Source of the DNA: a virus
Strand: one strand, 5' to 3'
Length of the DNA: 64,000 bases
Virus record (IMG/VR): IMGVR_UViG_3300045988_121070
The notes under the pieces were generated by a model. It saw nothing but the letters and a program-made list of their open reading frames with translations. It was not told where the DNA came from and searched no databases. The translations under genes and the position numbers were made by a program. Positions 27,065 to 54,916 of the stretch are shown piece by piece. Positions within the stretch are counted from its first letter, which is position 1; the number at the start of each line of letters is the position of its first letter.

Positions 27065-27307
27065 CTAAAAGAAGTATTCGATAAGGAGGACGGTTTTGGG
27101 GTAGTGAGCGAGAGAGAGGATGTCTTCAGGCAGCTGCATGGCATCGTAGCGGGTGTTTAGGGTGCAAGCGACACCTCCTGATGCTACGTTGACGGGGACT
27201 ATTTGCCCCCCCCCCCTAAACAGCCTTGGAGGTGCGGAGGTAGTTTGGGAAAGCGGGAGAGCTGTCATGCTATGACAGCATACGGAACGACTTTTCTTAT
27301 AGGTCAT
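27065..27307 (-). CDS. TRD-like cassette M12 (intact as sequenced)
   Basis: MTYKKSRSVCCHSMTALPLSQ..RGGGQIVPVNVASGGVACTLNTRYDA...LLIEYFF; C11 at 27206-27216 is in frame; hairpin element 27261-27290 embedded; paralog of M3. Confidence 0.55.
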   Translation of the reverse strand: MTYKKSRSVCCHSMTALPLSQTTSAPPRLFRGGGQIVPVNVASGGVACTLNTRYDAMQLPEDILSLAHYPKTVLLIEYFF

Positions 27308-27848: not shown

Positions 27849-27991
27849 ATTCTATCAGGATATACCCCCCCCCCATTTGCGGCCAACACCGTTTGGACGA
27901 TGCCGGCAGTACCTTGAACATTACCATCAAAACCATTACGGAAGGTATCGTAATATAGGTTCCCAATACGAAGGATGTTGCTATAAATCAT
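27838..27991 (-). CDS. TRD-like cassette M8 (broken; needs a 9-nt run)
   Basis: MIYSNILRIGNLYYDTFRNGFDGNVQGTAGIVQTVLAANGGG | YILIEYDL; C10 at 27865-27874. Confidence 0.5.
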
Positions 27992-48967: not shown

Positions 48968-49540
48968 ATGATTATGGAACAGATATATCATCTTTACATC
49001 ACGCACAAATGCGGCCACAACTGCCCGCTATGTTGCAACAGACTCTATGATATAGACAAACTACCTGTAATTACCGTAGAGGATCTGAAACAAGCTCATA
49101 CGGTATGCCTCACTGGTGGCGACCCGTTCTACCTTCTGAGAGAGGAATTGATATCAATCGTTGACAGACTTCGCATCCACTATAAGAATATCCAAAAGAT
49201 ATACATCTATACCAGCGGAAAGATGCTGTGGATAGAAGGTGCATTTTCTCATTGGCACGAGCTGATGCAGACTGTCAGCGGTATCAATATAGCACCGAAA
49301 TACTATGGCGATTGGGACAGACTCGACTATCTTCTTCAACAGCCGAAATGGTTGGAAATGACGGCACAAACAGGCATGTCTAATCGCCTATACATCTTTG
49401 ATGACCAGTGGGACACATGGAACACCATCAGCAAGGATGTTACGCTACCGGCAACATGGCAGGTGATAGGGCGCAAATGGGATAAGGAGTTTAAGACTCC
49501 AGAGAATGAGCATTTTGTAAGACTACCTATATTATACTGA
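48968..49540 (+). CDS. small radical SAM protein (QueE/NrdG-sized)
   Basis: ITHKCGHNCPLCCN (CxxxCxxC) and CLTGGDPF. Confidence 0.7.
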   Translation: MIMEQIYHLYITHKCGHNCPLCCNRLYDIDKLPVITVEDLKQAHTVCLTGGDPFYLLREELISIVDRLRIHYKNIQKIYIYTSGKMLWIEGAFSHWHELMQTVSGINIAPKYYGDWDRLDYLLQQPKWLEMTAQTGMSNRLYIFDDQWDTWNTISKDVTLPATWQVIGRKWDKEFKTPENEHFVRLPILY

Positions 49541-51810: not shown

Positions 51811-52683
51811 ATGGGTATAAATAAATTCAAATGGGATGTAAACTGTTGTGATGGGATATATAACTCATTCGACGTACACTTTACATCAGCCTGCGACAAC
51901 CGATGTAGGCATTGCATTGATATGAAGTACCAGGGTAAAGGTATTATAAAACCAGACCCGAAAGCAATAGCACAAACTATCATCGACCATTCAAACGGTT
52001 TCGATGATGTGTTATTCCTCGGAGGTGAACCATGTTTATATCTGGATGAACTTTACGACTGCATCTGTAGAATTAAGGCAGCGACTAATCTAAAATGCTT
52101 TGTTACAACATCAGTTCCTAAGACATGCTATACAAATTATTCTGTATTTCTACGAATATTAGAAATATTGGACGGCATGAATCTATCAGTACAACACTAC
52201 CGAGAGGATGTTGCAGACGAAATACGTTGTGTAAAGTCAACCTTTGACAGACAAAAATTCTATTCAGAATTACCCATGAAAGGAAAGATGCGCATCAATC
52301 TAAACATTGTCAAACCGTATCTATATAAGCGTGAAGATCTGTTAGCCTGTCTAAAGCACTACGATGACATGGGTTATAGAGAAATAAAACTCTCAGAAAT
52401 CCAACACGGCACCGAGCACTTCGTATCTTTCGAGAAGACATTAGGCATGAAGATGAAATCACCATTTGCCTACGGCTGTCAACAATGGGTGGATATGCGC
52501 CCATACATACCTGGGTACAAAGGCCGTCTGCTACTTAAACGATCATGCTTCCTCTGCGAGGAGACCTTAAAAGCCAGTTTTATGGACGGCATGAAGGTTA
52601 TGCGCAAATATCTGTTACGGCCACAAAAAGGCCATTATGCAGTAGTATATGAAGATGGCTCACTTGCTAACGGGTGGGTATAA
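51811..52683 (+). CDS. radical SAM protein
   Basis: FTSACDNRCRHCID (CxxxCxxC), VLFLGGEPCL. Confidence 0.75.
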   Translation: MGINKFKWDVNCCDGIYNSFDVHFTSACDNRCRHCIDMKYQGKGIIKPDPKAIAQTIIDHSNGFDDVLFLGGEPCLYLDELYDCICRIKAATNLKCFVTTSVPKTCYTNYSVFLRILEILDGMNLSVQHYREDVADEIRCVKSTFDRQKFYSELPMKGKMRINLNIVKPYLYKREDLLACLKHYDDMGYREIKLSEIQHGTEHFVSFEKTLGMKMKSPFAYGCQQWVDMRPYIPGYKGRLLLKRSCFLCEETLKASFMDGMKVMRKYLLRPQKGHYAVVYEDGSLANGWV

Positions 52684-52707
52684 GTTTAACTTTTTAATTT
52701 CAAGATT

Positions 52708-52896
52708 ATGTGGACGAGATTGTTAAGAGACCTGATGCTTCAGGTGACGTTAAAAATGGGACATTGCAGTGATGGCGGCGGTGGCGGATGGGGTCATTGC
52801 GGCGGCAGCGAGACACTTTATCGCAAGATAGGCAGCGGCCATTGTGCCACCTATGAGCCTGTCAATCGAGGCGGACACACGGGACATTGTTATTAA
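52708..52896 (+). CDS. small Gly/His/Cys peptide with four GHC repeats (candidate radical-SAM substrate)
   Basis: MWTRLLRDLMLQVTLK-MGHCSDGGGGGWGHCGGSETLYRKIGSGHCATYEPVNRGGHTGHCY; starts 24 nt after the radical-SAM stop. Confidence 0.45.
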   Translation: MWTRLLRDLMLQVTLKMGHCSDGGGGGWGHCGGSETLYRKIGSGHCATYEPVNRGGHTGHCY

Positions 52897-52916
52897 ATTC
52901 TTATATCATTATAATT

Positions 52917-53060
52917 ATGGCTTTTTGCAAAAAACGTGGTGTGGAAATAAGCGGTCCGAACTGCATGGGATGTTACCAATGTAATGAAGAAAAATCAGAA
53001 ACTCTTAGAAACTTATATGCAAGTTGTATAAGAATAATGAACGAACCTGATAAACAATGA
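52917..53060 (+). CDS. small Cys-rich peptide, 47 aa
   Basis: MAFCKKRGVEISGPNCMGCYQCNEEKSETLRNLYASCIRIMNEPDKQ; ATGA overlap with the next ORF. Confidence 0.35.
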   Translation: MAFCKKRGVEISGPNCMGCYQCNEEKSETLRNLYASCIRIMNEPDKQ

Positions 53061-53284
53061 AAACAATACATGAAATGGCTGTAGAGTATGGGGAAAAACA
53101 CCAAGGCACCTGCAATATCGAGGATTTCGAGGCAGGAGCTTTGGCTGTGGTCCTTATTTTCTTCAAGATAGATCAAGAGTCTTTCGATGACAACGCTCTG
53201 TCTTGTGCCGTAGAAAATGCTATAGGAGATTTAACAATAGATTATTCGTATGAAGAACTTAAAGCCAGGAATGCTGACGTATGA
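53057..53284 (+). CDS. hypothetical protein
   Basis: 75-aa acidic ORF. Confidence 0.4.
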   Translation: MKTIHEMAVEYGEKHQGTCNIEDFEAGALAVVLIFFKIDQESFDDNALSCAVENAIGDLTIDYSYEELKARNADV

Positions 53285-53867
53285 TTTAGCAGACGTGCCG
53301 GCATTTGATACGACGAAGGTGTATCTAATTAAGCCGTCGATAGACCACCCTATTGTGCCTGGGCAGCCGGTGCCGATGTCGAACGTAATAGAGCTGCATA
53401 ACGTCAAGGTGACTCCTTCTGTCTTTATAGAGCCAGAAATGGTAGCGCCGAAAGTGGAGGTGCCAAAGGAGCCTTTTAGCATAAGCGTGAATGTGAAGCA
53501 CTACTTCAGTAAAGCGGATAAGAAGAGGATTAAGAGAATGTTCTTTAAAAAGGTGCGATTGCCGAGGAAGTTGAAGAAGGCGTATAGAAAGATGACTATC
53601 CGCGACATGGATCCACATGTGGAACTGGGAGGTGAAAAGAATGGTAACGACGTGAAAATTACCATGAGCAGTTATCTGGGCATGAAGCATGGCTATAAGC
53701 GCACGAAGTGGGTTAATAAGGCTTTCTGCCACTTTAAAAAGATGCACAAGGCATGGGAGGAGCGCACAACGAAGCAGATGCAGGAGTACATGAAGCAGCA
53801 GGCAGTGGAAATGGTTGTGACGAAAGAGCAACAGGTGCGGCTGGCGGACATGCTAAGGAAGAAATGA
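53250..53867 (+). CDS. hypothetical basic protein (start uncertain, alternative ATG at 53271)
   Basis: 205-aa Lys/Arg-rich ORF. Confidence 0.45.
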   Translation: MKNLKPGMLTYDLADVPAFDTTKVYLIKPSIDHPIVPGQPVPMSNVIELHNVKVTPSVFIEPEMVAPKVEVPKEPFSISVNVKHYFSKADKKRIKRMFFKKVRLPRKLKKAYRKMTIRDMDPHVELGGEKNGNDVKITMSSYLGMKHGYKRTKWVNKAFCHFKKMHKAWEERTTKQMQEYMKQQAVEMVVTKEQQVRLADMLRKK

Positions 53868-53914
53868 GGACGGCGATAAAATCGCCTGACAATAAACGAA
53901 ACAAAAATTGAGAC

Positions 53915-54916
53915 ATGCTGATAGGACTGGTGGACGTGGACGGACACGCCAAGAAAAAGAAATGGGGTGCAACGATATACCCCAACCTCGCACTCGCTAA
54001 GATAGCGAGGTACTGGAGAAATAGGGGGGGGCAAATTGAATGGGCCACTCCCATGAAGCATTACGACATCATATACATGTCAAAGGTGTTTAACTTTTCG
54101 CCTGACGATACCTATATATATAATGCCGACGAGATAGTGAAAGGCGGGACGGGCTATGACCCTACGAGCCAGTTGCCGGAGGAGATAGACCGTCTGCAGC
54201 CGGACTACTCGATATACCCCAACGTGCCGAAAGATACTGCCTACGGATTTCTGACGAGAGGATGCCCGAACAGGTGTAAGTGGTGTGTGGTGCCCAGAAA
54301 AGAGGGTGCCATACGTCCGTATATGGATGTAGATGAGATAGCCATTGAGGGCAGGCGAAAGTTGGTGCTGATGGATAACAACATCTTAGCGGCAGGCGAC
54401 TACTGCATGGAGCAGTTGGAGAAGATCATTGAGAGAGGGTATAGGGTGGACTTTAACCAGGCTCTCGATGCGCGACTGGTGACTGACGAGGTGGCACAGC
54501 TGCTGGCGAGGGTGAAATGGCTTGATAACAACCGCATCCGCTTTGGGTGTGACACGCACGGACAGATAGCGGAGTGTGAGCGGGCTATGGCGCTCATCAA
54601 CAAGTATGGCTTCACGGGGCAGTATTTCCTTTATACGATGCTGACGGATGACTTCAGGGAGTGTTACGAGCGGATAGTGTATTGGTGGCACAGAACGCAA
54701 GAGACGCGGGCCAATCATCATGGGAGGTACGTCTATCCCCATGCACAGCCCTACCGTGACCCGATGAATCCCAACCACCACATACCACAATGGCAAAAGG
54801 ACATGGCGGGATGGGTAAATAAGAAGGCGCACTTTGTGGCGCACTCGTTTGAGGACTTTGAGCCGAGGAAAGGGTTTAGGTGTAAGCAGTACCTGAGAGA
54901 GGCAGGGATAATATAG
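53915..54916 (+). CDS. radical SAM protein with an N-terminal extension, carrying an in-frame G8 run
   Basis: FLTRGCPNRCKWCVVPRKEG (CxxxCxxC); G8 at 54024-54031 encodes RGGQ. Confidence 0.7.
   Translation: MLIGLVDVDGHAKKKKWGATIYPNLALAKIARYWRNRGGQIEWATPMKHYDIIYMSKVFNFSPDDTYIYNADEIVKGGTGYDPTSQLPEEIDRLQPDYSIYPNVPKDTAYGFLTRGCPNRCKWCVVPRKEGAIRPYMDVDEIAIEGRRKLVLMDNNILAAGDYCMEQLEKIIERGYRVDFNQALDARLVTDEVAQLLARVKWLDNNRIRFGCDTHGQIAECERAMALINKYGFTGQYFLYTMLTDDFRECYERIVYWWHRTQETRANHHGRYVYPHAQPYRDPMNPNHHIPQWQKDMAGWVNKKAHFVAHSFEDFEPRKGFRCKQYLREAGII

Follow-up and report, generated by a model that had tools for sequence, protein, structure and literature searches.

A compact radical SAM enzyme and a Gly-His-Cys repeat peptide as a conserved, mainly phage-borne two-gene unit

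Peptides modified by radical S-adenosylmethionine (SAM) enzymes are a major source of new chemistry and antibiotics. The SPASM maturases among these enzymes combine a C-terminal seven-cysteine motif, which binds two auxiliary clusters, with an N-terminal PqqD-like recognition element (RRE), and to our knowledge the radical SAM peptide systems known so far are almost all bacterial and possess both SPASM and RRE domains. Borosins, whose enzymes are SAM-dependent N-methyltransferases, occur in fused and in split forms. Here we analyzed a 64,000-nucleotide stretch of viral DNA (IMG/VR record IMGVR_UViG_3300045988_121070; in the following, the window) carrying a gene for a compact radical SAM enzyme that is followed by a gene for a 62-amino-acid (aa) peptide with four Gly-His-Cys (GHC) motifs. 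This enzyme and this peptide are a real, conserved two-gene unit, and because numerous phage and metagenome contigs carry the same pairing in split or fused form and no described family matches it, they probably represent a new enzyme-plus-substrate system. Its distinctive traits are that it is mainly phage-borne, that the enzyme is minimal, that the C-terminal Cys motif is new and that split and fused forms exist side by side.

The enzyme-peptide pair and its conservation

The window is the DNA of a gut phage, which encodes a head maturation protease, a sliding clamp, a primase-like protein and an NAD-dependent ligase. The enzyme-peptide pair is located outside the structural module in a block of accessory genes on a single strand, together with genes for a DNA methylase, a GNAT protein and a YopX protein. 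A first-pass annotation of the same DNA had described a possible cluster resembling those for ribosomally made peptides with post-translational modifications (RiPPs), comprising two radical SAM open reading frames (ORFs), the GHC peptide and a 47-aa ORF, and all of these were found again with the coordinates and sequences described there. The pair has the following features:

51811..52683, + strand: compact radical SAM enzyme, 290 aa, cluster motif CDNRCRHC (from Pfam, conserved columns and an AlphaFold2 model)
52708..52896, + strand: 62-codon gene of the precursor-like partner peptide (from its conservation downstream of the enzyme and its substitution pattern)
52759..52767, + strand: first G-H-C motif (G18 H19 C20)
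52792..52800, + strand: second G-H-C motif (G29 H30 C31)
52837..52845, + strand: third G-H-C motif (G44 H45 C46), within the segment ETLYRKvGxGHCxTYEPVNrG conserved in the four-repeat subclade
52882..52893, + strand: terminal G-H-C-Y, with the last Cys one residue from the C-terminus

The gap between the end of the enzyme ORF and the 62-codon ORF is 24 nucleotides (nt). The latter encodes MWTRLLRDLMLQVTLKMGHCSDGGGGGWGHCGGSETLYRKIGSGHCATYEPVNRGGHTGHCY, in which a leader-like stretch (residues 1–17, MWTRLLRDLMLQVTLKM) precedes a Gly-rich core with the four G-H-C motifs and the terminus GHCY. Since the six-frame translation of the entire 64 kb contains only six other GHC tripeptides, the occurrence of four within a single ORF of 62 residues is not due to chance (Poisson P ~3e-12). 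When the window was compared with its four-repeat relatives, the synonymous sites were near saturation (pS, the proportion of synonymous differences, 0.5–0.85) at a nonsynonymous to synonymous ratio (pN/pS) of 0.12–0.52, and hence the ORF is a real coding gene under purifying selection. The two results together rule out a chance ORF, and conservation at the amino acid level in relatives, which had been named as a check in the first-pass annotation, is thereby found. The GHC repeat had not been recognized there as a named class, and this is borne out by our searches: the peptide matched no family in Pfam, NCBIfam, PHROGs or PADLOC, including SCIFF and the other named precursor models. Its sequence contains neither HXS repeats nor the glycyl-radical motif RVxG[FWY].

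We then asked how regularly enzyme and peptide occur together. The enzyme family has more than 950 members in a large protein collection, almost all of them unnamed. Sixty-one loci on viral contigs and seven on contigs of metagenome-assembled genomes (MAGs) were fetched, and 64 loci were examined. In 58 of these 64, the start of a small ORF lies −13 to +72 nt relative to the stop codon of the enzyme gene, and the two frequently overlap by 4–13 nt. Re-inspection of the six exceptions revealed that four do have a partner, which lies behind an inserted gene, overlaps the enzyme gene, carries SHC/THC motifs or is hidden by a frame break, so that a partner is present in 62 of 64 loci and a partner ORF is lacking only in loci L066 and L067. 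For the reverse direction, a DNA pattern in IUPAC code for M[YFW]T[KR]...GHC...GHC was scanned over all of IMG/VR. Of the 31 matches, three are out-of-frame chance matches and 28 are in-frame peptides, each of which has the enzyme directly upstream (28/28). The co-occurrence of GHC-repeat ORFs with maturases in metagenomes, which the first-pass annotation had proposed to look for, thus holds in both directions. The enzyme is 77–85% identical among relatives while the peptide changes fast, and a conserved precursor gene beside the enzyme with a conserved leader and a variable core is what is generally expected of a RiPP locus.

Three loci show unusual arrangements of the pair. Two tandem GHC peptide genes with different cores, MFTKTLRKIVVATRNANGHCSSTGHCS and MFTKLMRKILTRHSYGNGHCVPDKPDKPVGHCY, follow one enzyme gene on a single contig (L026, 3337-3541; L101, 2702-2891). 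At locus L063 (2501-2956), a deletion has brought the peptide into frame behind the first ~131 enzyme residues (..INLVERYTRLLRKMDKFIQAMAGHCGGGTGHCSS), and the result is probably a decayed copy. The peptide beside an 81%-identical enzyme at locus L006 (3896-3988) has only 30 aa with two C-G-H-C motifs (MYTAFLRFVVGHIRKVCGHCAGGGGCGHCS); CGHC is the active-site tetrapeptide of protein disulfide isomerase.

The anatomy of the peptide was derived from 38 distinct GHC-type and related peptides. They share the N-terminal consensus M-[YFW]-T-[KR]-h-h-[RK] (h, hydrophobic), and their N-terminus is usually a basic amphipathic helix with a net charge of +5 and a hydrophobic moment above that of 95–99% of shuffled sequences. 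The leader of the window peptide is less basic than usual (net charge +2) and has no significant amphipathicity. When enzyme and peptide were modelled as a read-through fusion with the stop codon read as Gly, this leader was predicted to be helical with a predicted local distance difference test score (pLDDT) of ~73, and the core was predicted to be disordered. The core is Gly-rich throughout the set, with a G before the HC in 78 of 85 motifs and spacers of 3–14 residues between motifs. Two motifs are present in 29 peptides, three in one and four in six, and GCH replaces HC in the other two. Exactly one residue follows the last Cys in 34 of the 36 HC-bearing peptides, and in the main clade this terminal residue is variable (Y, S, D, G, N or F). 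Hence the anatomy is RiPP-like, with a conserved leader and a core that is hypervariable in spacer length and repeat number. The window peptide itself belongs to a derived four-repeat subclade with a conserved inter-motif segment.

Partner type follows the phylogeny of the enzyme. Enzymes at 40–46% identity and those of Lak megaphages (37%) are accompanied by a longer partner of 90–157 aa, in which a helical N-terminal region (..ISEAVTNAVDGITKKI..) is combined with at least four GGC(G) motifs and a terminal Cys. One enzyme clade has a partner with GGHCG four times, another a partner with GCH twice. In the enzyme tree, the enzymes with the long GGC partner form a single clade with a Shimodaira–Hasegawa-like approximate likelihood ratio test (SH-aLRT) support of 100, and the four-repeat type is nested within the two-repeat clade (SH-aLRT 99). 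Partner type therefore tracks enzyme clade, i.e. the two co-evolve. By eye, genes resembling NadR-type nucleotidyltransferases and PnuC-type transporters were noticed upstream of the pair in 14–15 loci of the GGC clade (L041-L054 and L062); these probably reflect lineage synteny and not a part of the system.

The family is found mainly on phage contigs, with members in phages from gut, rumen and sediment, including Lak megaphages. Among cultured phages, none carries the enzyme other than the Lak MAG records. The literature that we searched, which covers few subscription journals, contains no description of an enzyme-GHC peptide system.

The radical SAM enzyme and its fused relatives

On Pfam level, the enzyme matches PF04055 (Radical_SAM, 38 bits) and PF13353 (Fer4_12, 29 bits). 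All its NCBIfam matches lie far below the respective cutoffs, the best being prokaryotic viperin NF038283 with 31 bits versus 180. The viperin model TIGR04278 gives 13 bits versus 450, TIGR02495, which we used to judge membership in the PflA/NrdG activases of glycyl radical enzymes, 21 versus 131, TIGR03977 (HxsC of the His-Xaa-Ser system) 14 versus 268, and the SPASM maturase models 13–21 versus cutoffs of 340–550. Membership in the viperin, NrdG/PflA, HxsC and SPASM maturase families was rejected on these scores, and no glycyl radical enzyme gene is conserved near the pair across the loci. The PADLOC model for prokaryotic viperins (pVip) scores 34 bits, and the viperin match in a profile search of the PDB spans only residues 12–193 of 285 profile positions, leaving the C-terminal third unaligned. 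A firm assignment to nucleotide- or tRNA-modifying enzymes, which the first-pass annotation had considered, is therefore not obtained.

The AlphaFold2 model of the enzyme was predicted with a pLDDT of 93 and a predicted template modelling (TM) score of 0.88. Its closest folds in the PDB are MoaA as top match, viperin, DesII, SuiB, PFL-AE and EpeE with TM scores of 0.5–0.63, and a fold search of viral structures yielded none closer, only generic radical SAM folds with TM scores of at most 0.63. In this model the radical SAM core begins at about residue 19, which would leave no room for an N-terminal winged-helix domain. The cluster motif CX3CX2C comprises C28, C32 and C35, and the SAM-binding GGEP residues 71–74. 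Across split and fused forms at 22–81% identity, C28/C32/C35, G71-G72-E73-P74, S126, E196, G222-C223 and C246 are invariant. N11 and C13 are nearly invariant across the superfamily, C249 is so in the main clade only, and a further Cys near C246 shifts its position between clades. Because CX3CX2C, GGEP, C223 and C246 are invariant in both forms, the enzyme appears to be catalytically competent. The model places C223 before a predicted β-hairpin (224–227, 239–243) and C246 and C249 after it, followed by a helix (257–268), an arrangement reminiscent of a 'twitch'-type auxiliary-cluster element. The first-pass annotation had found SPASM cysteines not obvious; this stands, as there is no SPASM match, and is refined by C223 and C246 being invariant and C13 nearly so.

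When 1.84 billion representatives of 50%-identity clusters were searched with a profile, 114 clusters passed E<=1e-30 and 380 passed E<=1e-10. Many distant members of the family are single proteins in which the enzyme runs on into a Cys/His tail, for example ...LGCHGPFSFFNSNGCH, ...GSHCGNLGGHCG and ...LELTKKLKE...HDCHSGRGSRTGHC. No relatives of P0127 and P0251, two of the fused proteins, were found in IMG/VR. A metagenome scan with the fused forms yielded 177 relatives and confirmed the fused ORFs at the DNA level. Of these relatives, 80 loci were kept, and the 71 complete ORFs among them have the following tails:

~50-aa helical linker, Gly run and a single G-C-x-Y end: 34 of 71 ORFs
two or more CH/HC dyads, with the final one at the extreme C-terminus: 15 of 71 ORFs
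other Cys-bearing tail: 12 of 71 ORFs
tail without a terminal Cys: 10 of 71 ORFs

The superfamily thus follows a rule, in that a Cys in Gly context stands 0–2 residues from a free C-terminus, be it on a separate peptide or on a fused tail. The sampled surroundings of the fused forms look phage-like, and many neighbours are ORFans. At locus L174 (2060-6335) the fused-form enzyme lies between genes for an RtcB-type ligase (phrog_1075) and an Rnl-type ligase (phrog_562), and at locus L120 (6058-7971) a reverse transcriptase gene (phrog_1423) is located 1 kb downstream of another fused-form enzyme.

Possible function of the pair and its neighbouring genes

The linkage in both directions, the co-evolution, the fusions, the leader helix, the hypervariable repeat core and the tandem peptide genes lead us to infer that the enzyme acts on its cognate peptide. 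In this reading, to which we assign a probability of roughly 0.6, the pair is a self-contained, mainly phage-borne two-gene system consisting of a RiPP-like enzyme and its substrate. The peptide would dock on the enzyme through its N-terminal helix (M-[YFW]-T-[KR]-h-h-[RK]), and its flexible Gly-rich core would present to the active site a Cys that stands in G-[H/G]-C or G-C-H at the free C-terminus or adjacent to it. There the Cys thiolate may bind a putative auxiliary Fe-S site built from C13, C223 and C246, in the way that thioether-forming maturases bind the Cys of their substrate at an auxiliary cluster (PMC10177961). The 5′-deoxyadenosyl radical would then abstract a hydrogen atom from a nearby carbon, resulting in a covalent change at each motif. 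By analogy, our leading guess for this change is a thioether cross-link; PapB is able to link a Cys through its thiol to the carbon adjacent to a C-terminal carboxylate (PMC12373016). The product might be a cross-linked His/Cys peptide, possibly one that binds metal, which could act inside the infected anaerobic host or be freed at lysis.

Several observations weigh against an enzyme acting on its peptide. Neither Pfam nor NCBIfam finds a SPASM domain or an RRE/PqqD-like domain in the enzyme, and its closest sequence relatives are the viperins, which act on nucleotides (E ~2e-13 in the PDB profile search). The read-through fusion model gives the core a pLDDT of 30–45 and does not dock it with confidence. 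A fused enzyme-tail protein would be limited to one turnover unless its tail is cleaved off. Finally, HC and CH dyads are interchangeable across clades, which fits metal binding at least as well as regiospecific chemistry; the dyads are comparable ligands of Zn(II), Fe(II) and Ni(II) in either order (PMC10221980).

The main rival regards the peptide or tail as an accessory module that binds a metal or an Fe-S cluster, for instance as fourth cluster ligand, metallochaperone-like tail or redox partner, while the substrate of the enzyme would be another molecule such as a nucleotide, as for viperin and MoaA. The relationship to viperins and pVip and the top fold match to MoaA speak for it, and so do the swapping of GHC, GCH and GGC across clades, the fourth Cys near C246, whose position is not fixed, and the fact that most GHC peptides have exactly two dyads and thereby a potential His2Cys2 site. 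Metal-binding tails fused to enzymes are, moreover, common, as in SlyD, HypB and UreE. The viperin match, however, is confined to the core and below the NCBIfam cutoff, and the unaligned C-terminal third, in which viperin binds its nucleotide, carries the invariant Cys of the GHC enzyme. In addition, the tip of the 34 fused forms ending in G-C-x-Y offers just one Cys and lacks His. These ligands are insufficient for a metal site, and it is difficult to see such a tail as a metal-binding module, whereas it is readily understood as a substrate tethered to the enzyme. Nor would a structural subunit be expected to keep its last Cys at a fixed distance from the end, to have a leader-like helix, to be encoded by tandem genes or to gain and lose repeats quickly, so that we consider an accessory module unlikely.

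Less probable still is that the Cys motif is sacrificial or serves as a carrier, i.e. that it is a sulfur donor spent once per motif in a THI4-type suicide reaction or a scaffold from which a small molecule is released, following the logic of PEARL/3-thiaglutamate or mycofactocin. A reactive residue that always sits at a flexible C-terminal tip would suit this role, the variable repeat number would be as if to allow more turnovers per peptide, and each fused form with one motif would work for a single turnover. Tyr is the last residue of many tips (GHCY, GCxY), resembling the C-terminal GVY of MftA, but the terminal residue is variable in the main clade. Neither an acceptor pathway nor a peptidase, a tRNA-dependent ligase or an E1-like gene is conserved beside the pair, and the conserved inter-motif segments in the subclade of the window suggest that the whole peptide matters, which together make this explanation improbable.

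The genes that surround the pair in the window are the following:

52917..53060, + strand: 47-aa ORF with five Cys, followed by two small ORFs (ORF75 and ORF205)
53915..54916, + strand: second radical SAM ORF, cluster motif CPNRCKWC, with a run of eight G (G8) at 54024-54031
48968-49540, + strand: third, short radical SAM-like gene, 190 aa, CGHNCPLC

The 47-aa Cys-rich ORF, ORF75, ORF205 and the second radical SAM gene are confined to near-identical copies of the window phage; every other locus with the pair lacks them, and therefore the system consists of two genes, not six. No third gene family, including proteases and exporters or transporters, was found to be conserved across the pair loci; a gp25-like gene is near the pair in 15 loci. 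The second radical SAM protein belongs to phrog_9298 (E 5e-98). The cultured Phocaeicola phage PV4-TP1 and the Bacteroides phages LoVEphage and BI-TP1 have homologues of it that stand in different surroundings and are not accompanied by the pair. The second radical SAM protein has only the cluster-binding loop in common with the GHC enzyme family, carries ~110 residues ahead of its cluster motif, and a sequence search yielded no solved relative. Of the cluster proposed in the first-pass annotation, the link between the first radical SAM gene and the GHC peptide hence stands, whereas these two are conserved without the 47-aa ORF, the small ORFs or the second radical SAM gene. That the 47-aa ORF is a second precursor and the second radical SAM protein (53915-54916) a second maturase, as their close spacing on one strand and the five Cys might suggest, is very improbable and close to refuted, given their absence from every pair locus that is not near-identical, the missing third conserved family, the other contexts of phrog_9298 in cultured Bacteroidales phages and a match to the GHC enzyme family in the cluster loop only.

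The 47-aa ORF reads MAFCKKRGVEISGPNCMGCYQCNEEKSETLRNLYASCIRIMNEPDKQ and is limited to near-identical phage copies (96% identity); an 85%-identical relative (L004) has an unrelated 71-aa Cys-rich ORF at its position. The G8 run in the second radical SAM gene has equal length in two 98%-identical relatives (L001 and L009). The window holds fifteen G or C homopolymer runs of 8–11 bases, e.g. at 27206-27216 and 27865-27874, several of them within 27–31 kb. The 190-aa gene product aligns with the GHC enzyme family in the N-terminal core only (hhalign probability 96%, 109 columns), and its best NCBIfam match is HxsC with 25.6 bits, far below the cutoff.

Should the enzyme indeed modify the peptide, the system would comprise a new enzyme class and a new modification, and it would raise the question why phages of anaerobes often carry it, possible roles being host takeover, metal handling, counter-defence and competitor killing. 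With its two genes it is small enough to be tested directly by co-expression. More tentatively, the whole superfamily, which is mainly phage-borne, may perform an undescribed chemistry on Gly-x-Cys at a free C-terminus, either on a separate leader-bearing peptide or on a self-modified fused tail. Its product might be a new cross-linked, metal-binding or redox-active peptide, or a cofactor, used by phages on contigs from ~40 kb up to the 550 kb of megaphages infecting anaerobes.

Comparison with described systems

The sactipeptide and ranthipeptide systems (AlbA/SboA, SkfB/SkfA, CteB/SCIFF and PapB/PapA), whose products have thioether bridges from the Cys sulfur to C-alpha, C-beta or C-gamma, resemble the GHC system in that a radical SAM gene lies beside a gene for a short Cys peptide with a leader and a variable core. 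In both, Cys is likely the reactive residue, and the extra conserved Cys of the GHC enzyme could hold a thiolate-binding auxiliary cluster. Unlike these maturases, the enzyme of the window has only 290 aa, no SPASM domain and no PqqD-like RRE, and the motif G-H-C, G-C-H or G-G-C together with the position of the last Cys 0–2 residues from the end is foreign to their classes. The GHC system is furthermore mainly phage-borne, has no protease or transporter and includes fused enzyme-tail forms. With PapB it may also have the target in common, as this enzyme likewise uses a free C-terminal carboxylate (PMC12373016).

Viperin and pVip give the best PDB match (E ~2e-13) and the best PADLOC match (34 bits) over the radical SAM core and are of similarly compact size. 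Their NCBIfam scores of 31 versus 180 and 13 versus 450 bits and the unaligned C-terminal third with its invariant Cys nevertheless separate them from the GHC enzyme, which, in contrast to them, is obligately paired with or fused to a Cys peptide and is encoded by phages, not in defence islands.

The remaining similarities concern single traits. As in the borosins, the substrate core would occur both fused to the enzyme (OphMA type) and as a separate adjacent gene (SonM/SonA type), but borosin enzymes are not radical SAM proteins and the resemblance is architectural only. Mycofactocin biosynthesis (MftA/MftB/MftC) employs a radical SAM enzyme on the extreme C-terminus of a small peptide, as the GHC system would, and many tips of the GHC system end in Tyr as well. 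MftC, however, is a SPASM enzyme dependent on MftB as RRE protein, MftA ends in GVY and has no essential Cys there, and the GHC system has no equivalents of MftD, MftE and MftF. The His-Xaa-Ser system (HxsA repeats with HxsB/HxsC), to which the first-pass annotation had compared the locus, also places a His-containing repeat peptide beside radical SAM genes, yet motif and gene set differ and TIGR03977 scores 14 bits versus 268.

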